Source: an uncultured Mariniplasma sp. (GTDB taxonomy: Bacteria > Bacillota_I > Bacilli_A > Acholeplasmatales > Acholeplasmataceae). From it: a stretch of 64,000 nucleotides of DNA. The position numbers were made by a program, and so were the translations under genes. Below are positions 1,788-37,785 of this stretch, one piece after another. Within the stretch, counting starts at the first letter, position 1; each line of letters starts with the position of its first letter. Below the pieces are notes generated by a model. The model saw only the letters and a program-made list of their open reading frames with translations, did not search any database and was not told the DNA's origin. The DNA lies in contig CAZPLF010000006.1 of the NCBI GenBank assembly GCA_964587475.1, forward strand, positions 1 through 64,000. The letters run 5' to 3'.

Positions 1788-1847
1788 ATCATCTTTATTT
1801 TAATGTGATATTCGTGTAAAATAGAGTTAGTGCTAGGAGGGATACCT

Positions 1848-2993: not shown

Positions 2994-3029
2994 AAGGCGA
3001 AAGCCTTTTTTACTGGAAGGGAATCATTT

Positions 3030-4127: not shown

Positions 4128-4717
4128 TGTTTGATAATTTCTTAGGAATTGTTGTCTGTGCATCTAAATACTTTACATCATCACAAATAAGATTGCTCAA
4201 TCAAAAGGGTGTTTTTCATTTTGGAGAAAATAGAGTTCAAGATTTACTGGCAAAACAAAAGGATTTGACTGATTTAAATATTGTCTGGCATTTTATTGGT
4301 CATCTTCAAACAAATAAAGTGAAAGACATGATTAATCATATTGATTACTTACATACTTTGGATCGTCTCAATCTAGCAGAAAGCATCCAAAAATATGCAA
4401 ATAAACCGATAAAATGTTTGATTCAAGTCAATTTGACTAATGAAGATCAAAAAAGTGGGATTTTACCTTTGAATTTGGAACAATTTCTTATAGAAATTAA
4501 AAAATATGATAAAATAGAGTTAATCGGTTTGATGACTATAGGCAAAGATGATGATCATGTTCAAACGGAACTAGCATTCAAGACACTTGATGAGCTAGCC
4601 AAAAAATATGAACTGCCATTTCGCTCAATGGGGATGTCAAACGATTATGATCTCGCGATCAAGCATCATGCAACACACCTAAGAATTGGAAGAAAATTCA
4701 TGGAGTTGCTCGATTAG
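4127..4717 (+). CDS. ylmE: YggS/PLPBP-family pyridoxal-phosphate homeostasis protein (YlmE)
   Basis: FGENRVQDL and IGHLQTNK motifs. Its ATG overlaps the ychF stop by 1 nt. The N-terminus is shorter than is typical for YggS. Confidence 0.75.
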   Translation: MFDNFLGIVVCASKYFTSSQIRLLNQKGVFHFGENRVQDLLAKQKDLTDLNIVWHFIGHLQTNKVKDMINHIDYLHTLDRLNLAESIQKYANKPIKCLIQVNLTNEDQKSGILPLNLEQFLIEIKKYDKIELIGLMTIGKDDDHVQTELAFKTLDELAKKYELPFRSMGMSNDYDLAIKHHATHLRIGRKFMELLD

Positions 4718-4725
4718 GAGGTATT

Positions 4726-5067
4726 ATGGGACTTTTTAGTGTTGGAAAGAAAAAGAAGTTGCAAGAAGACATTATCGAAGACAAAACAATAATGTCCGAC
4801 CAGATTATTTTTGAAAAGCTCCAAAATGATGATGATGCATACTTGACTGGTCTTGCTGATCAGATGTTGGATGGACATCCACTGATCTTGAGTTTTGAAC
4901 CTCTTGATATCGACCAAGCTAACAAGGTGATTGCTTTCTTATCAGGTATTATTTATGCCGTTAAGGGAGAAATCGTCAATGTGAAAGAAAAAGTATTCAT
5001 GTTCGCAAGAGGCGATGTTTATCAAGATGGATCAATGGAAGATTTTTTAAAGGATATTGTCGAATAG
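4726..5067 (+). CDS. sepF: Cell division protein SepF (YlmF)
   Basis: 113 aa DUF552-like protein in the conserved position after ylmE. RBS GGAGG precedes it. Confidence 0.7.
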   Translation: MGLFSVGKKKKLQEDIIEDKTIMSDQIIFEKLQNDDDAYLTGLADQMLDGHPLILSFEPLDIDQANKVIAFLSGIIYAVKGEIVNVKEKVFMFARGDVYQDGSMEDFLKDIVE

Positions 5068-7993: not shown

Positions 7994-8727
7994 ACATATT
8001 AGTTGTCAATGATGATGGATATCAAGCTGAAGGCTTAGGTATCTTGGTTAGAGCACTTACACCTTTTGGAAACGTTTATGTTTCAGCACCTAAAGATCAT
8101 CAAAGTGCTAAAAGTCATGCGATTACCATTAAAAGTCGTATCGAAACTTTTATGACGGAACCAATTTTTGGTTCAGCAGGAACTTTGGTTGTCGATGGAA
8201 CACCGGCAGATGCAACCCGTTTGGGTCTCAAGGTTTTTAATGTTGATTTTGATTTGGTCGTATCCGGAATCAATTATGGACAAAACATTGCATCTGATAT
8301 TTTATATTCAGGAACCGTCGCTGCAGCACTTGAAGCAAAAATCCTTGGTGTTGATGCAATTGCTATCTCAGCACACAATACACATTTGCCCTATTTATAT
8401 GACGAAACAATTAAATTGATGGATGAAATCATAGAAGCAAAACTCTATGAAGGTCCTGGCATTTTAAATGTGAATTTTCCAAGAGATACATTTGCAAGAC
8501 CAAAAGGTGTAAAAATTACACAAATGGGACAAAGATTGCAGCATGCAGAATTTATAAAAAGTGAGCGTCCCGATGTTTATCACATCAAATCCAGCATTAT
8601 TAGTTATCAGGAAAACGTTGATTCAGATGTTGCTGCATTTGATGAAGGTTTTGTATCTATAACACCACTTAATATCAATCGTACTGATTTTCAACGAATT
8701 AATGAGATTCTTAAGACAGAAAAATAG
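7990..8727 (+). CDS. surE: 5'/3'-nucleotidase SurE
   Basis: N-terminal ILVVNDDG signature. 245 aa. Confidence 0.85.
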   Translation: MNILVVNDDGYQAEGLGILVRALTPFGNVYVSAPKDHQSAKSHAITIKSRIETFMTEPIFGSAGTLVVDGTPADATRLGLKVFNVDFDLVVSGINYGQNIASDILYSGTVAAALEAKILGVDAIAISAHNTHLPYLYDETIKLMDEIIEAKLYEGPGILNVNFPRDTFARPKGVKITQMGQRLQHAEFIKSERPDVYHIKSSIISYQENVDSDVAAFDEGFVSITPLNINRTDFQRINEILKTEK

Positions 8728-10417: not shown

Positions 10418-11125
10418 ATGCCAACACCGCATATTGATTTAGAAAATAAAGATTTAATAGCAAAAACAGTTTTAATGCCAGGAGATCCACTGAGAGCCAA
10501 GTATATTGCTGATAACTTCTTAACAAAAGTTGTTCAAATAAACGATGTCAGAAACATGTGGGGGTATACAGGTTATTTTGGTAAAAAGAAAGTTACCGTC
10601 ATGGGTTCTGGAATGGGTATGCCAAGTATTGGTATATACAGTTATGAACTGTTTAAGTTTTATGACGTTGAAAATATAATACGTATTGGATCATGTGGTG
10701 CTTATAGTGATGAATTAAAACTATATGATGTTGTCCTAGTTGAACAAGCATATTCTGAATCAAGTTATGCTAAGACAATGGGTGTTTCATCAAGAAAGAT
10801 TTTACCTGCAAATAAAACCCTTAATAATAAATTGATAAAAGCTGCAGAAAAAATCAATGTTAAATTACATCCTTCAGTTGTTCATTCTTCAGATGTTTTT
10901 TATCGATTGAAGAGTGACGAGTATAAAGAAATACATGAAAAATATGGCGCACAAGCCGTTGAAATGGAGTCATTTGCCTTATTTGCTAATGCTAAAGCAT
11001 TACATAAACGCGCAGCTTGTCTTCTAACCGTATCGGATTCCTTGGTGACACATGAGGCAACCTCATCACAGGAAAGACAAGAAGCATTTACAAAAATGAT
11101 GGAAGTTGCTTTAAATAGTATCTAA
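10418..11125 (+). CDS. deoD: Purine nucleoside phosphorylase, DeoD-type
   Basis: PNP family-1 motifs (MPGDPLRAKYIA, VMGSGMGMPS). 235 aa. Confidence 0.9.
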   Translation: MPTPHIDLENKDLIAKTVLMPGDPLRAKYIADNFLTKVVQINDVRNMWGYTGYFGKKKVTVMGSGMGMPSIGIYSYELFKFYDVENIIRIGSCGAYSDELKLYDVVLVEQAYSESSYAKTMGVSSRKILPANKTLNNKLIKAAEKINVKLHPSVVHSSDVFYRLKSDEYKEIHEKYGAQAVEMESFALFANAKALHKRAACLLTVSDSLVTHEATSSQERQEAFTKMMEVALNSI

Positions 11126-12324
11126 TGCTACTCATTAAAAATGATTTCAAAACGATACAATTCGCTGTCTACTTTACAGACTTAGACGAAGATGAAACAC
11201 GTGTGTATCGTTTTTTGTTGCCTAGATTATTAACATCACATACGAACCAATTACTCAATAAAACAATGATGAATGAAAAACTAGAAGATCTATATGGTGC
11301 CTACTTCAAATCACGCGTTGAACGTGTAGGCAATTTTTCTGTTGTAAGCATTATCTTAACCATTGTGGATCCTTTAATAGTTGAAGATGAACAGTTGATG
11401 AATCAAGCAATTGAACTTTTTAATCAAGTTCTTTACGATCATGATACTTTTGATAAGGATCTTTTCCTTGAAGAAAAAAGAATGGTGATTGAACAATGGG
11501 AAACGCTTCATGATAAGAAAAGATTGTATGCACAAACTAAATTTTATGAACATTTCTTCAAAGGTGATGCCTACGGAACACCTCTTTCAGGTAGTCTAGA
11601 GGACATAAAAAAATTAAACGTACAAAAACTAGAAAAATATTATAAAGAAGTATTTTTGAAAAATACAAAGAAATTCGTGGTAAATGGTAGAGTGAGTCGG
11701 GAAGATCAACTTAAACTTGAAAAAATGATGGCTCATGATTTAGAGAATAAGCATCCATTTGTAACATCATTTAGACCTGTAAGACCGCTACTTTTTATCG
11801 AAGAAGAAACTCAAATGAAGCAAGCAATTCTTAAACTGGGTTATCATTTTCCTATTTTCAGAGAAGATGAACACTACCATGCAGCTATTTTGTTAGATAC
11901 CATTTTAGGAGGTTATCCAGAAAGCAGGCTTTTTCAAGAGATTCGAGAAAAAGATGGATTGTGTTATGATATATCTTCTAACTATGATTACTATAAAGGC
12001 GTCATCATGATTAGTAGTGGTGTTGATCTTATTCAAAAAGATATGGCTTTGGAAGCAATCAAAAATTTAGTTTTAGACATGATTCTCAAAGGCGTTTCAG
12101 AAGAAGAGTTATTGCATGCAAAAGCATATTATACACATCAAATAATGAGTAGCCTTGACAATCAGTCTTTTTTAACAAAAAGAGCATTCATACGCGAGTT
12201 ACTCAATCATGATGAAACCATTGAAGAAAGACTCAATGCACTAAATAAAGTAACAATTGCTGATATTAAGATGCTTCTTAATATGATTACTTTAGATACT
12301 GTTTATGTACTTCACGGAAACTAA
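11125..12324 (+). CDS. M16-family peptidase, non-catalytic subunit (no HxxEH)
   Basis: 399 aa pitrilysin-like fold without the zinc-binding motif. Its likely partner is at 23263. Confidence 0.65.
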   Translation: MLLIKNDFKTIQFAVYFTDLDEDETRVYRFLLPRLLTSHTNQLLNKTMMNEKLEDLYGAYFKSRVERVGNFSVVSIILTIVDPLIVEDEQLMNQAIELFNQVLYDHDTFDKDLFLEEKRMVIEQWETLHDKKRLYAQTKFYEHFFKGDAYGTPLSGSLEDIKKLNVQKLEKYYKEVFLKNTKKFVVNGRVSREDQLKLEKMMAHDLENKHPFVTSFRPVRPLLFIEEETQMKQAILKLGYHFPIFREDEHYHAAILLDTILGGYPESRLFQEIREKDGLCYDISSNYDYYKGVIMISSGVDLIQKDMALEAIKNLVLDMILKGVSEEELLHAKAYYTHQIMSSLDNQSFLTKRAFIRELLNHDETIEERLNALNKVTIADIKMLLNMITLDTVYVLHGN

Positions 12325-12356: not shown

Positions 12357-12392
12357 ACTTTCATACTCTATTTGGTATGAAGGTTTTTTTAT
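12357..12392 (+). terminator. Rho-independent terminator
   Basis: CUUUCAUAC-loop-GUAUGAAGG hairpin followed by UUUUUUU. Confidence 0.7.
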
Positions 12393-12462
12393 TTATATAT
12401 GTAATTAAATATTCCAATATGAATGAAAATTCCACACATTTTATTAATATTTCATAGAAAGG

Positions 12463-12490
12463 TTGACAATACTGTGAAAAATGATATAAT
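12463..12490 (+). promoter_or_regulatory. Sigma-A type promoter for the BMC locus
   Basis: TTGACA at 12463-12468, a 16-nt spacer, and an extended -10 TGATATAAT at 12482-12490. Confidence 0.6.
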
Positions 12491-12554
12491 TAAGCCAAAT
12501 ATAGACGTGAATATATGAAAGAAAATTACTCAATACAACAAAGAGGTGCGATTA

Positions 12555-13580
12555 GTGATAAAAAATAAAGATATCGCGATACGATCTGGGGTTTCTGTTG
12601 CTACTGTTTCTAGAGTGATGAATCAAAGTGGTTATGTCAAAGATGAAACTAAGGATTTGGTGCTCAAAGCATTCAATGAACTGGTCAATGACGATCAGCT
12701 TTTAGTTCAATCGATAGCAAATGGAAAAACCAATCTCATAGGTGTTGTTGTTCCGGATATTTCAAATCCTTTTTTTGGTGAGGTCATCAAGGGTATATCA
12801 AGCATAGCTGATCAACACTCCGCTAGTTTGTTAGTCTGCAACACAGAAGAACAACTAGATAAGGAAATTAAGTATCTAGAACTGTTTAAGACAAATAACA
12901 TCAAAGGCTTAATTATCACTCCAAAAACAGACCAAGGTGTTTATAATTCAAAATACTTATATCAGCTTGAAGGATTAGGGGTTCCTATTGTCTTATTAGA
13001 TCGCGGTATCAATTTATCTCATTTTAATTCGGTTTTCGTCAACAATACATCAGGTTCTTTTGATGCAATCAATGCTTTGATTAATGAAGGCCACAAAAAT
13101 ATTGCAATAATTTCAGGACCGATGTCATCCAAACCAGGACGTGAAAGATTCTATGGTTATGAAAACGCCTTGAAAAACAATAATCTACCAGTGAATAAAG
13201 ATTATATCTTCTTTGGTGATTTTAAGCTACAAAGTGGTTATGAAATAACCAAAAAAATTCTGAATCTTGAACATAGACCGACTGCTATTTTTGCAGCAAA
13301 CAATATGATGGCTCAAGGATGTATAAAAGCTTTAGTTGAAAACAAATTATCAATTCCAAAAGATATGTCATTTATTAGCTTCGATGATGTTGACATGTTT
13401 GAAATTATGAATCTCAATATTTCAACAGTATCAAGACCAACTGAATTAATGGGTATTGTCGCTGCTGAAATGCTATTTGAACTAGTAGATCATAAACAAG
13501 AGAAGCATACATCCATTAAGGAAGTATTGCTAGAAACCAAACTTGTTTTAAGAGGTTCAGAAAAATTAGTTAAAAAATAA
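12555..13580 (+). CDS. LacI-family transcriptional regulator (HTH plus periplasmic-binding-fold sugar sensor)
   Basis: N-terminal HTH IAIRSGVSVATVSRVMNQ. GTG start at 12555 follows RBS AGAGG. Confidence 0.85.
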   Translation: MIKNKDIAIRSGVSVATVSRVMNQSGYVKDETKDLVLKAFNELVNDDQLLVQSIANGKTNLIGVVVPDISNPFFGEVIKGISSIADQHSASLLVCNTEEQLDKEIKYLELFKTNNIKGLIITPKTDQGVYNSKYLYQLEGLGVPIVLLDRGINLSHFNSVFVNNTSGSFDAINALINEGHKNIAIISGPMSSKPGRERFYGYENALKNNNLPVNKDYIFFGDFKLQSGYEITKKILNLEHRPTAIFAANNMMAQGCIKALVENKLSIPKDMSFISFDDVDMFEIMNLNISTVSRPTELMGIVAAEMLFELVDHKQEKHTSIKEVLLETKLVLRGSEKLVKK

Positions 13581-13592
13581 GGAGTAAACAAT

Positions 13593-14411
13593 ATGGAAAT
13601 TAACGACATCAAACAAATCGTGAGAGATGAACTCGTTACGAGCATTCTAGAATCTCAAGAATTCTTGATTGTGGGTAATTGGAAAATGAATAAAACAAAA
13701 GTTGAAGTCAATGCTTTTTTAGACGATATTGCTAATCATGATTTTGGTGATAAAAATACGGTTGTCATTCTACCTCCAAGTGCTTATCTTTATCTATTTG
13801 AAGATAAACTGAGATTTAGTAAAGTACTATACGGAACTCAAAATTTCTATCCAAAAGAAAACGGTGCATTTACAGGAGAATTTTCAGTAGACATGATGAA
13901 AGATTTTGGATGTAAGTTTGCACTTGCAGGACATTCCGAAAGAAGAGATATATTTATGGAATGTGATGCATTTACTGCTAAAAAAGTGAGAAGTTGTTTA
14001 GAAAATCAAATTAAACCAATTTTATGCATTGGTGAAAATCTAGATCAAAGACAAACAACAGATTATAAACAGTTTTTAATTGATCAACTCAAAAGATCTT
14101 TGGACCGCGTTGAAGGAAAAGATTTAAGTCAAGTCATTATTGCCTACGAACCAATTTGGGCGATCGGTACTGGAGAGACAGCAACACCAGAACAAGTTGA
14201 AGAAATACATATGCATTTAAGAAAGTTTTTAGTTCAACAATATGGATCTGAAATTGGAAAAGAAATTCCTTTATTATATGGTGGAAGTGTTAATGCCAAA
14301 AATGTTAAGGAGCTTGCACTTGCAGAAAGTGTTTCTGGATTCTTAATTGGTGGAGCAAGCTTAAACGCTCAAACATTCATTGAGATAAGCAATATCCTAA
14401 ACGGAAAATAA
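13593..14411 (+). CDS. tpiA: Triosephosphate isomerase paralog with an N-terminal extension of about 21 aa
   Basis: GNWKMN, LAGHSERR and YEPIWAIGTG motifs. There are 27 residues before GNWKMN, against about 6 in housekeeping TpiA. Confidence 0.88.
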   Translation: MEINDIKQIVRDELVTSILESQEFLIVGNWKMNKTKVEVNAFLDDIANHDFGDKNTVVILPPSAYLYLFEDKLRFSKVLYGTQNFYPKENGAFTGEFSVDMMKDFGCKFALAGHSERRDIFMECDAFTAKKVRSCLENQIKPILCIGENLDQRQTTDYKQFLIDQLKRSLDRVEGKDLSQVIIAYEPIWAIGTGETATPEQVEEIHMHLRKFLVQQYGSEIGKEIPLLYGGSVNAKNVKELALAESVSGFLIGGASLNAQTFIEISNILNGK

Positions 14412-14451
14412 TAGTTGTTCATTAAAAAATCCTATAGAAAGGTAGAAGAAT

Positions 14452-15315
14452 ATGGAAATCAAAAATATCGATCGACTTGTCGACAAAGTCGCAGCAAATA
14501 TTTTAGATAAACTGGATTTAAAAACTACATATGGCAACATCAATCATAAATCCTGTTTCATTCTAATACCAAATATGGGACTGGGGATGAAAGAATATAT
14601 CGAATACATCATTGAACACTATCAAGGATACGAACTTTATTTAGCATCAAGAGAAAATGGAGCGAATGTTGGAGATTTTAAAAACATCAAAACACTTGAA
14701 TTTGATATGAAAAACCAAAAATTCATTCATCTCTTAGATTCAGTTGAAAATATCATTGTCTTAGGATTGAAAATCAATCAAATGAAATCTATCATTAAAA
14801 CTGATGACGAAGATGATGTGAATCAACTCATCCTAGAGGGACTTCTCGCAAATAAACAAGTCAACGTGATGATGAACGCAAATGAACATATCTTTAGTAA
14901 ACTAAAAAATATTGTTACTGATTTAAGACATATGGGAGTTTATGTAACTAACATCCATCAAGTGAAAGCTTCTTCAATTGTTTCAAATGTAGAAATTGAA
15001 AAGACACATCATTTAAATTCTCAACAGGAACCAGATAGATCATGGGCGATAGCAACAAAGATTGCACCTGAAAAATTATATACAGCATCTTCTAAGTTGG
15101 AAAAAGAATGTCAACTCAATCCTTTTAAAGAATCAAACGATGTACTCATACCATCAAAAAATGAATTGATTACAGAAAGTTATGTGTTAAAACTTAAAGG
15201 CAGAGGAGTTAGAACAATGATTCTTGATAAGAAACATTTAATTACGCCACTTGCAAAAGATAAATTAAGAGAATATAAAATAGATATCAAATATATAGAG
15301 GAGGCAAAATCATGA
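14452..15315 (+). CDS. Hypothetical BMC-locus protein with an amphipathic N-terminus
   Basis: 287 aa with no recognisable motif. N-terminus NIDRLVDKVAANILDKL. Sits between the TIM and aldehyde dehydrogenase genes. Confidence 0.55.
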   Translation: MEIKNIDRLVDKVAANILDKLDLKTTYGNINHKSCFILIPNMGLGMKEYIEYIIEHYQGYELYLASRENGANVGDFKNIKTLEFDMKNQKFIHLLDSVENIIVLGLKINQMKSIIKTDDEDDVNQLILEGLLANKQVNVMMNANEHIFSKLKNIVTDLRHMGVYVTNIHQVKASSIVSNVEIEKTHHLNSQQEPDRSWAIATKIAPEKLYTASSKLEKECQLNPFKESNDVLIPSKNELITESYVLKLKGRGVRTMILDKKHLITPLAKDKLREYKIDIKYIEEAKS

Positions 15316-16736
15316 GCACACAAGATCTAATTGAAAGACTTAGAGCAGAAATGGAAGAAAAATATGGAAATAAGTCAACAAATACAACAACACCTCGTGA
15401 AGCTATCAATGTAGGAAGACTTGGATGTTATGAAAATGTATTGGATGCTATTGCAGCAGCAAAAGCATCACAAGAACAATTGATGGAACTCTCCATGAAA
15501 AAGCGTAACGAAATCATTGCAGCGATGAGAAAAGCAAGTTTAGATAATGCTGAAAAACTAGCAGTGATGGCACATGAAGAAACCGGATTTGGTAGAGTTG
15601 CTGATAAAATTATCAAAAATATTTTAGCAGCAGAAAAAACACCAGGCACTGAAGATCTCAGATCTCGCGCATACACTGGTGATGATGGTATGACTTTAGT
15701 TGAAATGGCACCATTCGGAGTTATTGGCTCTATTACGCCATCTACTAACCCTAGTTCAACAATCATTAATAACAGTATTAGCATGGTTGCAGCAGGTAAT
15801 GGTGTCGTATTCAATCCTCATCCAAGTGCTAAAAAAGTGACGCTTGAGACGATTTCTATCCTCAATCAAGCCATCCATAAAGTGGGTGGACCTAAAGAAC
15901 TTTTGACTGCACCCATTGATCCAACCATGGAAACCAGCAAGGTCATCATGACGCATAAAGACATTAGAATGTTAGCTGTTACTGGTGGTGAAGCAGTTGT
16001 TGAAGTTGCTATGAGAAGCGGTAAGAAAGTCATTGCTGCTGGTCCAGGTAATCCTCCAGTGATTGTTGATGAAACAGCAAATATTAAGAAAGCTGCTAAT
16101 GATATCCTAAGAGGTTCAAGCTTTGATAACAATATCTTGTGTACTGCAGAAAAAGAAGCCTTTATTCTTAATAGCGTATTTAATGAGCTTAGAAATGAAA
16201 TGATTAGACTTGGAGCTTATGAACTAAAGCACCATGAAATAGATATCGTCACAAAAGAAGTGTTCATCAAGAATAATCAAGGTGAAACAGTAGTTAACAG
16301 AAAATATGTTGGCAAAAATGCTTCAGAGATTTTAAAAGCGTGTAAGATTCCAGTGAATCAAGATGTTAAGTTGATTCTTGCTGAAGTTGATGATTCTCAT
16401 CCATTTGTAAATATAGAAATGTTGATGCCAGTATTGGCATTAGTCAGAGTCTATTCGGTTGATGAAGCTATTGAAAAAGCAGTAGCTGCTGAAGCTGGAA
16501 GACATCACTCAGCCATGATGCATTCAGAAAGCGTTACGAACCTTACAAAAGCCGCACGCGCATTAGACACAACAATTTTTGTGAAAAATGCACCATCATT
16601 TGCTGGATTAGGTATCGAAGGAGAAGGTTTCACAACCTTAACCATTGCAACCCCAACAGGTGAAGGTTTAACCTCAGCTAGAAGTTTTACAAGAATTAGA
16701 AGATGTACTTTATCAGGCGGATTTAGAATTATTTAA
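15312..16736 (+). CDS. CoA-acylating aldehyde dehydrogenase (EutE/PduP family)
   Basis: ALDH fold with catalytic ILCTAEKE. The N-terminal peptide DLIERLRAEMEE resembles an encapsulation peptide. Confidence 0.85.
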   Translation: MSTQDLIERLRAEMEEKYGNKSTNTTTPREAINVGRLGCYENVLDAIAAAKASQEQLMELSMKKRNEIIAAMRKASLDNAEKLAVMAHEETGFGRVADKIIKNILAAEKTPGTEDLRSRAYTGDDGMTLVEMAPFGVIGSITPSTNPSSTIINNSISMVAAGNGVVFNPHPSAKKVTLETISILNQAIHKVGGPKELLTAPIDPTMETSKVIMTHKDIRMLAVTGGEAVVEVAMRSGKKVIAAGPGNPPVIVDETANIKKAANDILRGSSFDNNILCTAEKEAFILNSVFNELRNEMIRLGAYELKHHEIDIVTKEVFIKNNQGETVVNRKYVGKNASEILKACKIPVNQDVKLILAEVDDSHPFVNIEMLMPVLALVRVYSVDEAIEKAVAAEAGRHHSAMMHSESVTNLTKAARALDTTIFVKNAPSFAGLGIEGEGFTTLTIATPTGEGLTSARSFTRIRRCTLSGGFRII

Positions 16737-16757
16737 TGAAAAATAGGAGTGGATAAT

Positions 16758-18071
16758 ATGTCTATTGATTATATCCAAAGAATCAAAGAAATAGGGGTTG
16801 TCGGAGCTGGTGGTGCTGGTTTTCCAACACACGTCAAATTAAACAGTAAAGCTAAAATTGTCATTATCAATGGTGCTGAATGCGAGCCTCTGCTTAGAGT
16901 TGATCAACAATTGATGGAATTTTATCCCCAAGATGTTATAGCTGGATTAAAAATTGCAATGGCTCAAACTGGAGCATCTCAAGGTGTGATTGGCTTAAAG
17001 GGAAAGTATAAAACTGCAATCTTGAAACTCGAAGAACTGATTAAAGATGAAAGTTCAATAGAGATCAAGATTATAGGTGACTATTATCCCGCTGGCGATG
17101 AACAACAACTTGTTTATGAAGTCACCAAGAGAGTTGTTCCACTCATGGGTATTCCACTTGATGTGGGTGCTGTTGTCATTAATGTACTAACAGCAATTAA
17201 TATTGCGCGCAATAAGCCAGTTACTGAAAGAGTTGTTACAGTCACTGGAGTAGTGAAGAAACCACAAACGTTAATTGTTCCTGTGGGAACACCATTTCGT
17301 GAATTGATTGAAGCATGTGAAGGCCCTACTGACGAAAAGAACTTTAGTATCGTTGTTGGAGGACCTATGATGGGAAAAGTTGAATCCAATTGGGATACAC
17401 CCGTATCAAAAGTAACTGGTGGAATCATTGTCCTGCCAAATGATCAATATGTGATTGTTAAAAAGACAAGAAAAACCGAAACCGATCTTCAGTTAACAAA
17501 AGCGATTTGTTGCCAGTGTTCATTATGTACCGAGATGTGTCCAAGGAATATCATCGGACTCAATACAGAACCCCATAAGGTTATGAGAGGACTTGCCAAT
17601 GAAGATCCATCGACATTAGGTGCTATCGGTTCAGTCGTGTCTTGTTGTGACTGTGGATTATGCAGCATCTATGCATGTCCAATGGATTTAGATCCAGGTA
17701 AAATAACGAATTTGGTTAAGCAGAGCTTACTTAGAAAAGGTGCTAAAACCGAAAAGGTCATTCCTTATGAAGTTGATCCCTTAAGAGATAGCAAGAAGGT
17801 CCCAACAAAAAGGCTTATTGCAAGACTAGAATTATTAGATTATAATGTTGCAGCTCCCTTGAATTTCAATATATTTGAGACAAAGGCTGTAAAGGTTTTA
17901 TTAAAGCAACATATTGGTGTTGATGCAACACCAATTAAAAAGATTGGTGATACTGTTACGAAAGGTACATTAATTGCAACTTGTTATGATAAATTAGGTG
18001 CTAATGTTCATGCGAGCATCGATGGGCGCATTACAGATATTACTGATAAGTATATAGAAATACATGCATAA
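16758..18071 (+). CDS. PduS/RnfC-family flavin and 2x[4Fe-4S] oxidoreductase
   Basis: GAGGAGFPT nucleotide-binding site. Two Cys clusters: CCQCSLCTEMCP and CCDCGLCSIYACP. Confidence 0.8.
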   Translation: MSIDYIQRIKEIGVVGAGGAGFPTHVKLNSKAKIVIINGAECEPLLRVDQQLMEFYPQDVIAGLKIAMAQTGASQGVIGLKGKYKTAILKLEELIKDESSIEIKIIGDYYPAGDEQQLVYEVTKRVVPLMGIPLDVGAVVINVLTAINIARNKPVTERVVTVTGVVKKPQTLIVPVGTPFRELIEACEGPTDEKNFSIVVGGPMMGKVESNWDTPVSKVTGGIIVLPNDQYVIVKKTRKTETDLQLTKAICCQCSLCTEMCPRNIIGLNTEPHKVMRGLANEDPSTLGAIGSVVSCCDCGLCSIYACPMDLDPGKITNLVKQSLLRKGAKTEKVIPYEVDPLRDSKKVPTKRLIARLELLDYNVAAPLNFNIFETKAVKVLLKQHIGVDATPIKKIGDTVTKGTLIATCYDKLGANVHASIDGRITDITDKYIEIHA

Positions 18072-18085
18072 GGAGGAACTATGTT

Positions 18086-18631
18086 ATGGAAGCATTAGGC
18101 ATGCTCGAACTAAATAGTATTGCACGAGGTATTGAAGCTGGAGATACTGCGATTAAAACTGCTAATGTTAAATTAATTGGTGCTTATGCAGCTTGTCCTG
18201 GTAAATTTGTTGTGATGATAAGAGGTGAGGTTGCTGCTGTAAAAAGTGCCATTCAAGCTGGAGCTATCATCGCAGGTAAATCACTGATTAAAGATATCGT
18301 GATAGCAAATATACATGATCAAGTATTTTCAGCATTAAACTGTACAACAGAAATTGATCCAAAAGGTGCAGTTGGTATTATAGAAACCTATTCACTCGCA
18401 ACAGCTGTCTTAATATCTGATGCTGCCGTTAAGGCGGCAAGCGTTGAGTTATTGGAGATTAGATTAGGACGTGGACTTGGTGGAAAAGCATTTACCGTTT
18501 TGACTGGTGATGTGAGTAGCGTCAAAGCCGCAGTTGAAGCAGCTGTTATTGCCAGTAAAAATGATGGACTTTTAGCCCATACAGCAGTAATTCCAAGAAT
18601 TAGCAAGGAAATGTTACAAACATTGATTTAA
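18086..18631 (+). CDS. Tandem-domain BMC shell protein (BMC-T, PduT-like)
   Basis: Two BMC domains in 181 aa. Cys in AACPGKF sits at the position of the PduT pore 4Fe-4S ligand. Confidence 0.85.
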
Positions 18632-18656
18632 AAATAAAATAAGGGAGAATAAGAAA

Positions 18657-18932
18657 ATGGTAGTTGAAGCATTAGGATTAATCGAAACAAGAGGATTTGT
18701 AGGAGCTATTGAAGCTGCAGATGCAATGGTTAAAGCAGCAAATGTTAAACTTGTTGGAAAAGAAAAATCAGGTAGTGGATTAGTCGCAATTATGGTTCGT
18801 GGTGATGTTGGTGCCGTCAAAGCAGCAACTGAAGCTGGTGCTGAAGCAGCACGTAGAGTTGGAGAATTAGTATCAGTTCATGTGATCCCTAGACCACATG
18901 CAGATGTAGAAGACTTGCTTAGTAAGCTTTAA
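18657..18932 (+). CDS. BMC-H hexameric shell protein (PduA/EutM-like) 1
   Basis: [11 protein letters not shown]...[12 protein letters not shown] canonical BMC domain. Confidence 0.95.
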
Positions 18933-18963
18933 AAAAATAGATTAGAATAGGAGAATTAAAATT

Positions 18964-19236
18964 ATGAAAGAAGCATTAGGATTAATTGAAACAAGAGGAT
19001 TTGTTGCAGCAATTGAAGCTGCAGATGCAATGGTCAAAGCAGCAAATGTTAAACTAATTGGCAGAGAAAAATCAGGTAGTGGATTAGTTGCTATGATGGT
19101 TCGTGGAGATGTCGGTGCCGTCAAGGCAGCAACAGAAGCTGGCGCTGAAGCAGCGCGTAGAGTTGGAGAATTAGTATCAGTTCATGTGATCCCAAGACCA
19201 CATGCAGATGTTGAAGAATTACTCAACAATCTATAA
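18964..19236 (+). CDS. BMC-H hexameric shell protein 2
   Basis: Near-identical paralog of the previous gene. Confidence 0.95.
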
Positions 19237-19251
19237 AAAAGGAGAAAGAAA

Positions 19252-19560
19252 ATGAAAGAAGCATTAGGATTAATCGAAACTAGAGGTTTTGTCGCAGCAA
19301 TTGAAGCAGCAGACGCAATGGTTAAGGCTGCAAATGTAAGACTTATCGGAAAAGAAAAGTCAGGTAGTGGATTAGTAGCTATGATGGTTCGTGGTGATGT
19401 CGGTGCCGTCAAGGCAGCAACTGAAGCTGGCGCTGAAGCAGCTCGCAGAGTTGGCGAATTAGTATCAGTACATGTTATTCCAAGTCCACATGCAGATGTA
19501 GAAGAATTATTAAGTGCGCTTAAAGAATCACCTGCAAAAGTCGTCAAAGTAGCAAAATAA
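19252..19560 (+). CDS. BMC-H hexameric shell protein 3
   Basis: Paralog with a short C-terminal tail [13 protein letters not shown]. Confidence 0.95.
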
Positions 19561-19610
19561 TTTTTTGACAATAATTTGTGAATAAATCTATACAGAAAGG
19601 AGAAAACAAA

Positions 19611-19880
19611 ATGGTAGAAGCATTAGGTTTGATCGAAACTAGAGGATTTGTTAGTGCCGTCGAAGCTGCAGACGCAATGGTCAAAGCTGCAAATGTAAGA
19701 CTCATTGGAAAAGAAAAATCAGGCAGTGGGTTAGTCGCAGTTATGGTTCGTGGTGATGTAGGTGCCGTCAAGGCAGCTACTCAAGCTGGAGCTGAAGCAG
19801 CTCGCCGTGTCGGTGAGCTTGTTTCCGTACATGTTATTCCAAGACCACATGCAGATGTTGAAGAATTATTAAAGAAATAA
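19611..19880 (+). CDS. BMC-H hexameric shell protein 4
   Basis: Paralog. RBS AGGAG is 9 nt upstream of ATG 19611. The ORF-track start at 19578 is too long. Confidence 0.93.
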
Positions 19881-19889
19881 AAAGATAAA

Positions 19890-20675
19890 GTGAAAAGAGC
19901 TGAAATTATGGAATTAGATAAATTAATAGAAAGAATTGCTAATGAAATCTATAGCAAAATCGCAAAAGAAGACAATGGTTCATCAAGCATTAAAGTAAAT
20001 GACAATAGTGATCTTGCTAAAATGATTGATCATACATTGTTGAAACCAGAAGCAACAGAAGAAGATATTAAGAAGGTTTGTGAAGAAGCATTACAATATA
20101 AGTTTAAATCTGTTTGTGTAAACACACACTATGTTGCTTTAGTTTCACGTCTTTTGGCTGGATCTAGTGTTTTAACTTGTGGTGTTGTAGGATTCCCATT
20201 AGGTGCGATGACTACAAGAGCTAAAGTAGATGAAACTAGTGATGCGATTAAGAGTGGTGCACATGAAATCGATATGGTTATCAATATTGGTGCACTTAAA
20301 TCTGGCAATTGGAATATTGTCAAAAGTGATATTGAAGGTGTTGTCAATGTAGCAAGAGGTCGGGCGATAGTTAAAGTTATTTTGGAAACATCATTATTAA
20401 CTGATGAAGAAAAAATAAGAGCTTGTACAATTGCTAAAATGGCTGGTGCTGATTTTGTCAAAACCTCAACTGGATTTAATAAAGGTGGAGCAACAATCGA
20501 AGATATTACATTAATGCGTAAAGTTGTAGGACCACATATGGGTGTTAAAGCTTCTGGTGGTGTTCGTGATACTGAAACTGCGAGAGCAATGATTGCTGCT
20601 GGTGCAACAAGAATTGGAACAAGTTCAGGAATAAATATCATTAAGGGCTCTAAGCCTGCGACTGGTACTTATTAA
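19890..20675 (+). CDS. deoC: Deoxyribose-phosphate aldolase with an N-terminal extension of about 38 aa (SPU-type signature enzyme)
   Basis: Aligns along the full length with class-I DERA ([28 protein letters not shown]). Carries an extra N-terminal segment [19 protein letters not shown] plus a linker. The start may instead be ATG 19908. Confidence 0.9.
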
Positions 20676-20697
20676 TACCTAGAAAAGAGGAAATTAT

Positions 20698-21018
20698 ATG
20701 TATGCTGCGAGAATTATTGGAACTGTTGTGTGTACGCAAAAGGATCCAAGTATGAACAGTTTAAAGATGCAGGTTGTACAACCTGTTAACATCATTACCT
20801 TTAAAGATGAGGGTAAACCTGCAGTAGCAATTGATGCTGTTGGAGCTGGTGATTCAGAAATTGTTTTAGTTGTAGCTGGTAGTTCTGCAAGACTCACTGA
20901 ACTTACACAAAATAAACCTACTGATGCAACGATTATGGCAATTGTTGATTATGTCGATATTGAAGGTAAAAATGTCTTCAGTAAAAATAAAAAACAACCA
21001 GAAGTAGGTTCAAAATAA
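20698..21018 (+). CDS. BMC-P pentameric vertex protein (EutN/PduN/CcmL) 1
   Basis: 106 aa EutN fold. Opens with RIIGTVV. Confidence 0.85.
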   Translation: MYAARIIGTVVCTQKDPSMNSLKMQVVQPVNIITFKDEGKPAVAIDAVGAGDSEIVLVVAGSSARLTELTQNKPTDATIMAIVDYVDIEGKNVFSKNKKQPEVGSK

Positions 21019-21091
21019 ATTAAGACAAATCATCAGATTCAAAATGAAGATTAATATGCAATTTTTGCATATTATATAAGGAGATGTAACA

Positions 21092-21553
21092 ATGAAAATT
21101 GCTATTGGTTGTGACCATGGTGGTTATGAATTAAAGGAAAAAGCAAAAAAATATATTACAGAAGAATTAAAAATGCAAGTACAAGATTTTGGCACCTATA
21201 ATAAAAATAGATGTGATTATCCAGACTATGCATTTTTGGTTGCTTCTGCAGTTTCACTTAAAAAATGTGATTTCGGCATCATGATTGATGGCGCTGGTAT
21301 TGGTTCTTCCATGATGGCAAACAAAGTACCTGGCGTACTTGCTGCATGTGCAAATGAAGTCTATACAGCACATAATAGTCGCGAACATAACGGAGCTAAC
21401 GTTTTAACATTGGGTAGCTATGTTATAGGTGAAGGTGTCGCAAAAGAAATCATTAAAACATTCCTAAGTACCAAATTTGAAGGTGAAAGAAATTTACAAC
21501 GTGTAAAGAGTATTTTAGAAATCGAAAAAAGAATTTTAAGCAATAGGGAGTGA
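21092..21553 (+). CDS. rpiB: Ribose-5-phosphate isomerase B / LacAB-family sugar-phosphate isomerase
   Basis: MKIAIGCDHGGYELKE N-terminus. 153 aa. Confidence 0.88.
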   Translation: MKIAIGCDHGGYELKEKAKKYITEELKMQVQDFGTYNKNRCDYPDYAFLVASAVSLKKCDFGIMIDGAGIGSSMMANKVPGVLAACANEVYTAHNSREHNGANVLTLGSYVIGEGVAKEIIKTFLSTKFEGERNLQRVKSILEIEKRILSNRE

Positions 21554-21557
21554 TACT

Positions 21558-21830
21558 ATGCAAATGGCAAAAGTGATCGGTACTGTGACATCAACAGTCA
21601 AGATCAAAGATATTAAAGGTGTATCTTTACTAGTGATTCAACCTGTTAATTCAAAGTATGAATCACTAGGTGCACCTATTGTTGCCGGAGATAATTACGG
21701 TGCAGGTGTTGGTGAATATGTTTTCTATTCGAAAAGTAAAGAAGGAGCAATGAATTTACCGATTCCTACTTCATGTGTTGATGCTGGGATAGTTGGTATC
21801 ATTGATTATGTCTTTAGAAAAGATGAATAA
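21558..21830 (+). CDS. BMC-P vertex protein 2
   Basis: 90 aa EutN fold. Confidence 0.82.
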   Translation: MQMAKVIGTVTSTVKIKDIKGVSLLVIQPVNSKYESLGAPIVAGDNYGAGVGEYVFYSKSKEGAMNLPIPTSCVDAGIVGIIDYVFRKDE

Positions 21831-21851
21831 CATTAAGAATGAGGTGTTATT

Positions 21852-22148
21852 ATGCAACTAGCAATAGTCGTAGGGAATTTGGTTTCAACACATAAAAATG
21901 AATTAATCAAAGGAAAAAAACTTTTGTTTGTCCAACCTATTGATGAAAAATTGATCCCATTTGGTGATGAAATGCTTGCTGTTGATGCTGTAGGAGCAGG
22001 CATAGGTGATGTCGTTGTCATTCTGCATGAAGGTACGTCAGCAAGACAGGTTACCCATGCAGAAAGCAAATACTCACCAATCGAATTGTGTATTGCAGGC
22101 ATTGTCGATTCGATTAAAACTGAAGGTAGCTATAAAACTTTTGATTAG
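21852..22148 (+). CDS. BMC-P vertex protein 3
   Basis: 98 aa EutN fold. Confidence 0.82.
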   Translation: MQLAIVVGNLVSTHKNELIKGKKLLFVQPIDEKLIPFGDEMLAVDAVGAGIGDVVVILHEGTSARQVTHAESKYSPIELCIAGIVDSIKTEGSYKTFD

Positions 22149-22160
22149 TAGGATGATAAA

Positions 22161-23162
22161 ATGAACCTTTTAGATCATATAATTGAACAAGCAAAAAAGA
22201 ATATTAAAACGATTGTTCTTCCCGAAGGGAAGGATCAAAGAACCATTACCGCTGCAAGAAAACTTCAAAGTCAGAATATTGTAAATGTGATTGTTTTAAT
22301 TAATCGTGCTGATATGAATGATGAGACCACAAAGTTGCAAAGTGAAGGTATCAAAGTCATTGTTTTGGAACAATCTGAACAATTGAATTTGTACAGTTCA
22401 CAATTATACGAATTAAGAAAAGAAAAAGGAATGACAAAAGAAGAAGCTGATAAGCTTGTTCTCAATACTGTTTATCATGGCGTGATGATGGTTAAGAACC
22501 AAGATGCTGATGGTATGGTTGCTGGTGCAATTACTGCATCAGGTGATGTCTTAAGACCAGCACTTCAAATTCTTAAAACGGCAGAAAACGTAAAGATTGT
22601 GTCGTCGTTTTTCTTAATGGAAATTCCAAATTCCAAACATGTAATGAATAAAGTGTTTGCTTTTTCGGATTGTGGTCTAGTGGTTAATCCAAACGCAGAT
22701 GAATTAGCGGAAATTGCAATTCAAACTGCAAAATCATTTGCATATCTAACACATGAAGATCCTCGAGTAGCTATGCTTTCCTATTCAACTTATGGAAGTG
22801 CAAAAGGAGAGCTTGTTGATAAGGTTGTTACTGCAACAAAAAATGTACAATCGAAATATCCTAATCTTAAAATTGATGGCGAATTACAACTAGATGCTGC
22901 AATTGTACCTTCTGTTGCTCAATTAAAAGCACCATTAAGTAGAGTTGCAGGATATGCTAATGTATTGATATTTCCCGATTTGCAATCTGGAAATATAGGA
23001 TATAAATTAGTAGAGAGATTGGCTAATGCAGCAGCTTATGGACCAATCACTCAAGGATTGAGCAAACCTGTCAATGATCTTTCAAGAGGATGTTCAGCAG
23101 AAGATATTGTTGCTGTTGTGGCAATTACTGCTCTTCAAACACAATCAGGTATAGTTCATTAA
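22161..23162 (+). CDS. pta: Phosphate acetyltransferase (Pta/EutD type)
   Basis: 333 aa PTA_PTB fold. Motifs IVLPEGKDQR, AFSDCG, DLSRGCSAED. Confidence 0.88.
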   Translation: MNLLDHIIEQAKKNIKTIVLPEGKDQRTITAARKLQSQNIVNVIVLINRADMNDETTKLQSEGIKVIVLEQSEQLNLYSSQLYELRKEKGMTKEEADKLVLNTVYHGVMMVKNQDADGMVAGAITASGDVLRPALQILKTAENVKIVSSFFLMEIPNSKHVMNKVFAFSDCGLVVNPNADELAEIAIQTAKSFAYLTHEDPRVAMLSYSTYGSAKGELVDKVVTATKNVQSKYPNLKIDGELQLDAAIVPSVAQLKAPLSRVAGYANVLIFPDLQSGNIGYKLVERLANAAAYGPITQGLSKPVNDLSRGCSAEDIVAVVAITALQTQSGIVH

Positions 23163-23262: not shown

Positions 23263-24537
23263 ATGATAAAAAAAACATTTGAACGCTTTAATGAATCACT
23301 TTATATAATCAAACTGAGAAATGGTATGCAAGTTCATATATTGCCTAAAGAAGATCCTTATTTCACGACATATGTTGAAGCAAGTGTTCCTTTTGGAGCT
23401 CTAGATTTATCATATAAAACTGATGATAAATTAATCAATACACCATATGGAACAGCACACTTCTTAGAACATAAAATATTTGCAATGCCTGATGGAGATG
23501 CATTTGCGCATTTTTCTGCTTTGGGTGTTGATGCAAATGCTATGACCTCATATGATCAAACGTCTTATTTATTTATTGCTACTCAAAATATGATTTCTGC
23601 TTTAGAGTATCTATTTGAAATGATTGACACGCCTTTTTTTACAAATGAAAATGTCGATCAAGAGAAACGCATTATCGCAGAAGAACTAAAGATGTATCTA
23701 GATGATCCGAATGTTGTCATGCATAACCAACTAATAGAGATGATGTATCATGCTCACCCTCTAAAGTATGATATTGGAGGAACGCTTGAATCAATTATGG
23801 ATATTACTCCAGAAATTCTTAAAGATGTCTATGATAAATTTTATAATCCCTCAAATCGGTTAATTACAATTGCTGGTAAAGTAGATATTAAAGAACTACA
23901 AATATTCTTTAAAAACTATGATTTAAAAAATCCAGTAAAATATAAAAAAGTAAAGACTATTTATCCGAAAGAACCTATGCGATTATACCAAAAATCAATG
24001 ATAGAAATCAAAGATGTTGGAATTGATAAGCTGATGCTTGGTATTAAACTTAGTCCAAGTAAGTCAAATCAAAGAGATCAAGTGAAAAAAGAAATGGCAG
24101 TTTCAATGCTTTTGAATATTCTTTTAGGCCCATCTTCTCAAACTTATGCAAAATTACTTGAAGATAAGTTGATCAATCAAAGTTTTTATGTCAACACAAC
24201 ATTTGAAAAAAAAGCAGAAAATATTATTGTATTTGCTGAAACGAAAAGAATTTATAAACTGAAGAAAATCTTAATCGATATTCTAACTGTTCAAGCTTTG
24301 AGTTTGGTAACTCAAGAAGCTTTTGATCGGTATAAGAAAGTTTATTTAGGCCAATTCATATTTGCTCTAAACAATCTAGAAACAAAAGCGTATCTTTATG
24401 GTAAATATTTCCATATGGGATCTTCTTTGTTTGATGTTGTCGATTTACTTAAAGAAATAGAATATGAAGACGTACTTCAAGAACTTAAATCAATACAAAG
24501 AAAATATATTGCTGTACTAATACATAAAAAGGCTTAA
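23263..24537 (+). CDS. M16-family zinc peptidase, catalytic subunit
   Basis: HFLEH inverted zincin motif. 424 aa. Confidence 0.75.
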   Translation: MIKKTFERFNESLYIIKLRNGMQVHILPKEDPYFTTYVEASVPFGALDLSYKTDDKLINTPYGTAHFLEHKIFAMPDGDAFAHFSALGVDANAMTSYDQTSYLFIATQNMISALEYLFEMIDTPFFTNENVDQEKRIIAEELKMYLDDPNVVMHNQLIEMMYHAHPLKYDIGGTLESIMDITPEILKDVYDKFYNPSNRLITIAGKVDIKELQIFFKNYDLKNPVKYKKVKTIYPKEPMRLYQKSMIEIKDVGIDKLMLGIKLSPSKSNQRDQVKKEMAVSMLLNILLGPSSQTYAKLLEDKLINQSFYVNTTFEKKAENIIVFAETKRIYKLKKILIDILTVQALSLVTQEAFDRYKKVYLGQFIFALNNLETKAYLYGKYFHMGSSLFDVVDLLKEIEYEDVLQELKSIQRKYIAVLIHKKA

Positions 24538-37577: not shown

Positions 37578-37625
37578 TAGAGTTTGAATCTTGTGTATTT
37601 TATATATTCATGATATGATATGAAT

Positions 37626-37716
37626 GATCACTACGGGGAGCTTAAATGCTGAGAGGACGAAAGTCGACCCGCGAACCTGATCTGGATCATACCAGCGGAG
37701 GGATAGTCGACATAAT
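37626..37716 (+). ncRNA. TPP (THI-box) riboswitch
   Basis: ACGGGGAGC...GCUGAGAGG...ACCCGCGAACCUGAUCUGGAUCAUACCAGCGGAGGGA matches the THI-element consensus (CUGAGA, ACCUGAUCUGGAUAAUGCCAGCG). Confidence 0.9.
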
Positions 37717-37785
37717 TAATTGTCATTTACTATCAATTTCTTGGTTCATCCATAGAAATTTTTTATTTTCTAAGGAGAAAAAGAA

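Follow-up and report, generated by a model that had tools for sequence, protein, structure and literature searches.

A bacterial microcompartment (BMC) locus of subtype SPU4 was analysed in a 64,000-nucleotide stretch of DNA from an uncultured Mariniplasma sp. (assembly GCA_964587475.1, contig CAZPLF010000006.1, positions 1 to 64,000), called hereafter the window. Because family assignments are strong and homologs have been studied in published work, we read this locus as a metabolosome that would degrade deoxyribose-5-phosphate, with a probability of roughly 0.8. It comprises 16 co-oriented genes on the + strand (12555–23162), all with intact reading frames. Genes were called from the open reading frame listing of the window and from Pfam and NCBIfam profile scans, and the start codons of the LacI, PduS, BMC-H4 and DeoC genes were reset according to ortholog lengths and ribosome-binding sites. 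An earlier note on this DNA had the orientation and the coordinates right and announced 17 genes, although its own list sums to 16, the number found here. The genes are, in order:

12555–13580, + strand: LacI-family repressor, 341 aa, with LacI HTH and Peripla_BP domains
13593–14411, + strand: triosephosphate isomerase (TIM), preceded by 24 aa at the N-terminus that resemble an encapsulation peptide (PF00121, 280 bits)
14452–15315, + strand: eut_hyp/PduM-like core protein, 287 aa (no Pfam match; weak match to TIGR02536, eut_hyp, E 1e-12)
15312–16736, + strand: CoA-acylating aldehyde dehydrogenase (AldDH; NF011927, 636 bits)
16758–18071, + strand: PduS-type flavo-FeS protein, or metabolosome NADH dehydrogenase (MNdh; Complex1_51K, SLBB, Fer4_17 and RnfC_N)
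18086–18631, + strand: PduT-type tandem BMC-T shell protein with a CPGK Fe-S motif in the pore, class BMC-T(SE) (E 4e-46 to 3NWG, CPGK aligned)
18657–18932, + strand: BMC-H paralog 1 (PF00936, 104 bits; KAANV and PRPH interface motifs, GSG pore)
18964–19236, + strand: BMC-H paralog 2 (PF00936; 90–94% protein identity to the other paralogs)
19252–19560, + strand: BMC-H paralog 3 (PF00936), with PSPH for PRPH and a Lys-rich C-terminal tail
19611–19880, + strand: BMC-H paralog 4 (PF00936), start reset to an internal ATG
19908–20675, + strand: deoxyribose-5-phosphate aldolase (DERA, DeoC), the signature enzyme, whose first 34 aa form an amphipathic extension (TIGR00126, 288 bits, cut-off 117)
20698–21018, + strand: BMC-P pentamer protein 1 (PF03319, 91 bits)
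21092–21553, + strand: RpiB-family protein with Asp for the catalytic Cys and no encapsulation peptide (PF02502, 176 bits)
21558–21830, + strand: BMC-P pentamer protein 2 (PF03319, 80 bits)
21852–22148, + strand: BMC-P pentamer protein 3 (PF03319, 85 bits)
22161–23162, + strand: phosphotransacetylase Pta, housekeeping PF01515 type, no terminal extension (PF01515, 400 bits; TIGR00651, 381 bits)

Shell genes and enzymes all scored above the Pfam or NCBIfam cut-offs, with wide margins. The BMC and EutN shell genes named in the earlier note pass their thresholds amply: five PF00936 proteins (103–144 bits, cut-off 24.5) and three PF03319 proteins (80–91 bits, cut-off 25) are encoded inside 4 kb. 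Four of the former are BMC-H proteins (103–105 bits each), 90–94% identical in protein and 82–88% in DNA, and they make up the only large repeat family found. The Lys-rich tail of paralog 3 (19252–19560) is 12 residues long, and in this paralog the PRPH edge motif is replaced by PSPH; a BMC-H paralog of 101–104 aa is also present in related loci, including that of Ca. Izimaplasma HR2. The BMC-P paralogs are mutually 35–36% identical, with the second and third adjacent, and form the triplet of SPU loci. The PduT-like protein, with its CPGK motif and its gene beside that of PduS, is the sole BMC-T; BMC-T(dp) is absent, as in SPU4. Elsewhere in the window no further shell genes were found.

The signature enzyme is a DeoC-type class I aldolase (PF01791). 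Alignment to solved DERAs (E 1e-83, 60–70% identity) begins at residue 34, and residues 1–34 constitute an extension absent in those structures. The Asp/Lys/Lys catalytic motifs are intact in the alignment, including the Lys that the earlier note had wished to see checked, and GVKASGG is conserved. Non-BMC DeoC homologs, encoded beside deoD in related genomes that have no cassette at this site, lack the N-terminal extension, since only about 207 aa align. The AldDH has the catalytic Cys motif NNILCTAEKE and starts with a helix, MSTQDLIERLRAEMEE, followed by a low-complexity linker. In TIM, the PF00121 domain runs from residue 25 and the motifs NWKMN, GHSERR and YEPIWAIGTG are present. N-terminal extensions resembling encapsulation peptides are carried by DERA, AldDH, TIM and the eut_hyp protein, and are absent in Pta and RpiB.

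The eut_hyp/PduM-like protein had been listed as unknown, and it indeed has no Pfam match, but its features can be described: it has an amphipathic helix at its N-terminus and a domain of flavoprotein fold (UbiX/HFCD-like), as well as an insert that is disordered and lineage-specific and, at the C-terminus, a conserved domain, ITPLAKDKL. The insert, of about 55 residues (172–228), occurs in the closest relatives only and is absent in the 228–233-aa orthologs of HR2, strain zrk1 and others. An identical protein (287 aa, 100%) was found on marine metagenome contigs sharing its upstream gene. The 5' ends of the TIM and eut_hyp genes (13587–13621 and 14446–14480) share 71% identity over 35 nt, a stretch which covers the ribosome-binding-site region and the first codons of the encapsulation peptides (MEIND.../MEIKN...). 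This hints that a targeting peptide was copied between the two genes.

PduS carries an FMN/NADH-binding domain and the motif GAGGAGFP, and its two Cys-rich stretches, CCQCSLCTEMCP and CCDCGLCSIYACP, are typical of 4Fe-4S clusters. Its gene lies 14 nt from that of PduT, whose CPGK occupies residues 37–40, an arrangement that corresponds to an MNdh/BMC-T(SE) pair. As the earlier note had it, no alcohol dehydrogenase is encoded in the locus, and none is encoded elsewhere in the window. MNdh/BMC-T(SE) pairs have been proposed to regenerate NAD+ where a locus is devoid of alcohol dehydrogenase, and this model explains the absence (PMC11626177). The module described by Sutter et al. (2024) likewise combines a PduS homolog adjoining a CP(G/S)K BMC-T with an AldDH and no alcohol dehydrogenase; it was characterised in another compartment type, whereas the pair described here is known from its genes.

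In the proposed pathway, SurE, DeoD and Pdp, encoded nearby, would release deoxyribose-1-phosphate from scavenged DNA and, after mutase action, deoxyribose-5-phosphate would enter the shell via the BMC-H pores. Inside, DERA would split it to yield glyceraldehyde-3-phosphate plus acetaldehyde, an activity shown for the SPU6 homolog, and the CoA-acylating AldDH would convert the trapped, toxic acetaldehyde to acetyl-CoA and NADH. NAD+ would be regenerated without alcohol dehydrogenase, electrons passing from PduS to the Fe-S cluster in the PduT pore and from there to the cytosol. Pta would turn acetyl-CoA into acetyl-phosphate, with recycling of CoA, and acetyl-phosphate would yield ATP through acetate kinase, whose gene is not in the locus. 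Encapsulated TIM would equilibrate glyceraldehyde-3-phosphate and dihydroxyacetone phosphate. DERA, AldDH, TIM and the eut_hyp/PduM-like flavoprotein-fold protein would be targeted by their N-terminal amphipathic helices, and the Cys-less RpiB would probably enter bound to DERA, with a role in packaging rather than as a ribose-5-phosphate isomerase. The shell would be assembled from the four near-identical BMC-H proteins, the one BMC-T and the BMC-P triplet. The LacI protein, acting on two operators that flank the promoter, would probably repress the operon, the inducer being a (deoxy)nucleoside or a pentose-phosphate signal. This aldehyde-sequestering logic around DERA, with AldDH making acetyl-CoA and Pta making acetyl-phosphate, had already been put forward in the earlier note, and the motifs, the extensions and the nearby salvage genes speak for it. 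The salvage enzymes are encoded as follows:

7990–8727: SurE nucleotidase
10418–11125, + strand: DeoD purine-nucleoside phosphorylase, which makes deoxyribose-1-phosphate, outside the cassette (TIGR00107, 275 bits)
32796–34091, + strand: pyrimidine-nucleoside phosphorylase (Pdp), outside the cassette (NF004747, 584 bits)

Together with a phosphodiesterase-family gene, these nucleoside-salvage genes support deoxyribose-5-phosphate as the substrate. The phosphodiesterase-family gene (34102–35220) begins 11 nt after pdp and encodes a 372-aa alkaline-phosphatase-superfamily protein, with a weak match to PF01663 (nucleotide pyrophosphatase/phosphodiesterase) and no NCBIfam match. A phosphodiesterase that scavenges nucleic acids is one possible role, a non-canonical phosphopentomutase another; as a candidate for the latter it was set aside, given that its only match is the weak one to the phosphodiesterase family. 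Thymidylate synthase and DHFR are also encoded in the window. In more distant relatives (five contigs, about 3414–4070), a short non-BMC deoC lies directly upstream of deoD. That place is taken in the window by a YczE-like membrane protein and a 284-aa open reading frame without annotation, and likewise in its closest relative that has no cassette at this site; the BMC DERA may thus be the sole DERA of the lineage.

Which enzymes the shell would contain is a question raised by Pta, a housekeeping-type PF01515 enzyme whose domain fills residues 3–327 of 333, leaving no extension. RpiB has none either, and in Bacillales SPU4 loci the BMC-specific PduL (PF06130) is used instead of Pta. These features would suit a shell holding only DERA, AldDH, TIM, PduS and the flavoprotein-like protein, with Pta and RpiB in the cytosol; Pta being outside, acetyl-CoA and CoA would therefore cross the shell. 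We consider such an 'incomplete-core' metabolosome unlikely. A BMC-T(dp) protein, which typically accompanies SPU loci without encapsulated PTAC (Dwyer 2024, PMC11585597), is not encoded here, and a DERA-RPI complex would offer RpiB a piggy-back route. Moreover, Pta is kept as the last cassette gene in all Izemoplasmatales and Lachnospiraceae versions. In the ethanolamine metabolosome EUT1, EutD is encapsulated. EUT1, too, uses a PF01515 enzyme without recognisable peptide, according to the catalogue text (Sutter 2021).

The identity of the substrate, in turn, hinges in part on RpiB. The protein belongs to PF02502, in line with the name RpiB in the earlier note, but it is no standard enzyme: it reads IDGAG where solved RpiB proteins have ICGTG, with the catalytic Cys-x-Thr. 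Among the BMC-linked homologs in a set of over 60 retrieved loci from many phyla, almost all have Asp in place of this Cys. Selection was estimated as dN/dS against two orthologous loci and, dS being near saturation, is to be read qualitatively: values were 0.06–0.08 for rpiB, indicating strong purifying selection, and 0.05–0.13 for all tested cassette genes, indicating purifying selection. The SPU6 RPI homolog is almost inactive on ribose-5-phosphate and binds DERA at about 1:1 (Dwyer et al. 2024, PMC11585597). By analogy, RpiB is here probably a partner of DERA.

A different reading would give the compartment another sugar phosphate as substrate, RNA-derived or a rare pentose or deoxy-sugar phosphate; Asp-RpiB and TIM would then be working isomerases within the shell, and DERA would take a related aldol substrate. 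The purifying selection on rpiB and a Cys-to-Asp change that is invariant across nearly all SPU lineages suggest a conserved specific function rather than decay, Dwyer et al. leave other sugar phosphates open for SPU compartments (PMC11585597), and RbsR, the ribose repressor, is among the closest NCBIfam models for the LacI protein. Yet on the deoC equivalog model DERA reaches 288 bits, every catalytic residue being present, and the neighbouring genes serve nucleoside salvage. Lachnospiraceae relatives do without RpiB, which is therefore not essential to the core chemistry. On balance, another substrate seems improbable.

We return to the deoxyribose-5-phosphate metabolosome and to its place among known systems. 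SPU loci were named in 2014 (PMC4207490) and had grown to more than 280, in seven subtypes, by 2021 (PMC8217296). According to the earlier note, no SPU compartment was known to have been characterised biochemically or structurally. This no longer holds: SPU6 DERA in active form has been purified, as has a complex of DERA with RPI (Dwyer et al. 2024, PMC11585597), and SPU-type shells from Asgard archaea have been reconstituted (2025 preprint, PMC12747264). Nor are the 'unusual extras' it pointed to unusual, since TIM, three BMC-P genes, PduS/PduT and RpiB are described features of SPU4 or of metabolosomes, and the lack of an alcohol dehydrogenase fits the MNdh model. The comparison with catalogued BMC types that it recommended led to SPU4, with the gene order of HR2 save for the BMC-H copies.

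The SPU4 catalogue entry (Sutter 2021, Suppl. Data 2) gives as host either a Firmicutes member or Ca. Izimaplasma HR2, a Tenericute. SPU4 content is listed as AldDH, DERA, RPI, PTAC, TPI, eut_hyp with encapsulation peptide and a BMC-P triplet, with no BMC-T(dp) (Sutter 2021), and PduS/PduT are present in 14 of 33 loci (Suppl. Data 2). The window has both TPI (PF00121) and an eut_hyp protein (TIGR02536) that carries a putative N-terminal encapsulation peptide and is related to PF02441 flavoproteins. Its host falls within the SPU4 range (Bacillales, Clostridiales or Tenericutes/Izimaplasma): best matches were to Mariniplasma and other Izemoplasmatales, with DERA 78–87% identical (87% in uncultured Mariniplasma, 78–85% in other Izemoplasmatales, among them Mycoplasmatota strain zrk6, whose genome is complete). 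Judged from its sequence, the host is a free-living, wall-less marine member of the Mycoplasmatota (Izemoplasmatales). One feature departs from the entry, in which the PTAC is a PduL (PF06130) that usually carries an encapsulation peptide, whereas here it is of PF01515 type without extension. The same is true of HR2 and of Lachnospiraceae relatives, and because the catalogue files HR2 under SPU4 we treat this as a sub-variant and keep the membership. By gene content, synteny with HR2 and catalogue text, the locus is thus of subtype SPU4, already catalogued, a good example and no new type. Assignment to EUT, PDU or GRM was rejected, as neither the locus nor the window encodes an ethanolamine lyase, a diol dehydratase or a glycyl-radical enzyme.

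At least 11 Izemoplasmatales genomes at species level carry the cassette, among them that of the cultured strain zrk6, and homologs from zrk1 and WC30 are listed as well. In a previous survey, HR2 alone had it (10.1101/528695). That survey cites a 2016 proposal that HR2 has a microcompartment for aldehydes derived from deoxyribose. Gene order is the same in HR2, zrk6 and about ten other Izemoplasmatales species, and only BMC-H copy number varies. The HR2 locus runs, like the present one, LacI, TIM, eut_hyp, AldDH, PduS, PduT, BMC-H copies, DeoC, BMC-P, RpiB, BMC-P, BMC-P, Pta, with three BMC-H genes against four here (the catalogue gives two as typical). It differs also in its genomic insertion site and in lacking the disordered insert of about 55 aa in eut_hyp; the two loci come from different species, and eut_hyp and DeoC of the window are 39% and about 78–80% identical, respectively, to those of the HR2-like clade.

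More distant systems share parts of this design. Bacillales SPU4 loci (e.g. Paenibacillus alba) have DERA, AldDH, TIM, RpiB, an eut_hyp-like protein of about 250 aa, the BMC-P triplet and BMC-H, but they have PduL (PF06130) for Pta (PF01515), a SorC/DeoR-type regulator for LacI, no PduS/PduT, two BMC-H genes and another gene order, with DERA last. Lachnospiraceae loci show the Pta/PduS/PduT layout seen here, but without RpiB. The SPU6 loci of Chloroflexi (Dwyer, Sutter and Kerfeld 2024) have in common with the window a signature DERA with N-terminal extension and catalytic residues, an RPI without catalytic Cys and the BMC-P triplet. They differ by a BMC-T(dp), a C-terminal encapsulation peptide on AldDH, a GntR regulator, an RPI with encapsulation peptide and a 75-residue linker, and the absence of PduS, TIM and PTAC; SPU6 enzymes have been purified and assayed, whereas the window's locus is known from genes alone. 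EUT1 of Salmonella similarly pairs an acylating AldDH with a PF01515-type enzyme, EutD, in a BMC-H/BMC-P shell. In contrast, its signature enzyme is a B12-dependent ethanolamine ammonia-lyase and NAD+ is recycled by the EutG alcohol dehydrogenase, not by PduS/PduT. Finally, the Hodarchaeales SPU-type BMC (2025 preprint) has DERA, AldDH, PduS, RPI and a BMC-P triplet, with a proposed catabolism of DNA-derived deoxyribose-5-phosphate. There, however, the flavoprotein domain is fused to DERA, whereas here the flavoprotein-fold protein is a separate gene; that locus was acquired from Myxococcota, and one of its BMC-P proteins has a DNA-binding disordered tail.

Four elements upstream of the first gene bear on expression of the operon:

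12357–12384, + strand: intrinsic terminator-like hairpin after yfmF, just within the left edge of the cassette (11-bp stem, 6-nt loop, T-run)
12420–12434, no strand assigned: candidate LacI operator O1 (TGAATGAAAATTCCA; consensus TGNAA-N5-TTNCA); it lies upstream of the -35 element, at a distance of 29 bp
12463–12490, + strand: sigma-70 promoter, TTGACA, 16-nt spacer and TG-extended TATAAT (12/12 consensus)
12516–12530, no strand assigned: candidate LacI operator O2 (TGAAAGAAAATTACT), located after the -10 element and before the ribosome-binding site

The one promoter named in the earlier note is a full consensus match (12/12, with extended TG) that begins at the note's start coordinate, and its TTGAC is kept at the same offset in orthologous loci. 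Intergenic gaps within the locus do not exceed 73 nt, and a scan detected no convincing + strand terminator inside the locus and none 3' of Pta. The consensus promoter, the short gaps and the lack of a convincing internal terminator make a single transcript plausible. No riboswitch or other RNA element was found at the operon; the only Rfam hit was a distant TPP riboswitch (RF00059, 63 bits, 37624–37720), located 5' of a + strand gene (37786–38478).

The start of the LacI protein was moved from 12546 to 12555, in agreement with the ribosome-binding site AAGAGG and with 341-aa orthologs. Its nearest NCBIfam models are PurR, RbsR and CytR, each below cut-off, and it has no N-terminal extension of the encapsulation-peptide type. 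The 15-bp inverted repeat TGNAA-N5-TTNCA occurs in two copies, at fixed positions, in the promoter regions of nine Izemoplasmatales species; O1 and O2 are 96 bp apart from centre to centre. When the 64-kb window was scanned with a weight matrix from which its own sites had been left out, O2 ranked first (18.8 bits) and O1 second, compared with a mean of 0.3 matches in shuffled sequence at the same threshold. We infer that the pair serves as LacI operators. The third-best match (21484–21498, TGAAAGAAATTTACA, 14.4 bits) lies within the rpiB coding sequence and may be due to chance or be an internal operator. The same scan gave no convincing extra sites upstream of deoD or pdp.

The unit from LacI to Pta is an insert of about 10.9 kb between yfmF and yfmH, with junctions near 12321 and 23255. 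Seven related metagenome contigs show the arrangement without it: deoD, yfmF and yfmH follow one another directly, with the end of yfmF overlapping both the start of yfmH and its ribosome-binding site. One further contig has the same insertion (Pta and YfmH proteins 83–88% identical to the window's), and in other Izemoplasmatales the same cassette sits in unrelated neighbourhoods. Neither terminal repeats nor mobility genes were found at the cassette edges. The two disrupted neighbours, yfmF (11125–12324) and yfmH (23263–24537), encode M16-family proteins that NCBIfam links to the 5-aminopentanol modification of EF-P; in relatives they overlap and look translationally coupled, and here they are split by the cassette. 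In the window, yfmH is without the GGAGG formerly provided by the 3' end of yfmF. Neither a promoter nor a terminator lies between it and Pta, and it may therefore now need read-through from the operon to be expressed.

A cassette acquired recently and now silent or decaying, an island without current function, as the split of a coupled gene pair and the varying flanking genes among species could suggest, is very improbable given 16 of 16 intact frames, dN/dS of 0.05–0.13, a consensus promoter with conserved operators, and an insertion common to a contig whose Pta and YfmH are 83–88% identical.

Elsewhere in the window, a cell-division cluster (1830–5067; FtsZ, a YggS-like PLP protein and SepF) is kept in this wall-less lineage and adjoins tgt, ychF and ileS.

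Several points weigh against the reading of the locus as a deoxyribose-5-phosphate metabolosome. With an RpiB devoid of its catalytic Cys, and an SPU6 homolog almost inactive on ribose-5-phosphate, part of the pathway logic is left unexplained. So are CoA recycling and the exit of acetyl-CoA, because Pta has no encapsulation peptide and the locus no large-pore BMC-T(dp) protein. The canonical phosphopentomutase DeoB was not found in the window, and the single transcript is predicted from consensus scans. To our knowledge, no SPU compartment has been seen or genetically tested in its native host.

A broader proposal, which we hold only tentatively and think somewhat less probable than its opposite, is that the Izemoplasmatales version constitutes a distinct mobile sub-variant of SPU4, characterised by a LacI dual operator, PduS/PduT electron export, a housekeeping-type Pta with no recognisable targeting peptide and a Cys-to-Asp RpiB carried in by DERA. 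It would be the main route from the deoxyribose of seafloor extracellular DNA to ATP in abundant wall-less DNA degraders. If so, it would offer the first chance to test an SPU compartment in its native host, in the cultured carriers zrk6, zrk1 and WC30, which have complete genomes, and it would imply either a peptide-independent loading of Pta or the crossing of CoA esters through an H/T/P shell without a large-pore trimer.

The details added by the present analysis are the type of Pta, the Cys-to-Asp change in RpiB, the conserved operator pair and the clean insertion between the overlapping yfmF and yfmH. SPU compartments are among the most widespread BMC types, and the compact HR2-style cassette is common across Izemoplasmatales, cultured strains included. 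PMC8289736 and PMC8397711 describe the Izemoplasmatales as experimentally supported degraders of extracellular DNA, and deoxyribose-5-phosphate catabolism and acetaldehyde containment could therefore be tested directly in these organisms. The conserved operator pair would provide a handle for the search for the inducer, and the oddities of Pta and RpiB bear on how peptide-less cargo may be loaded and how CoA may be recycled.

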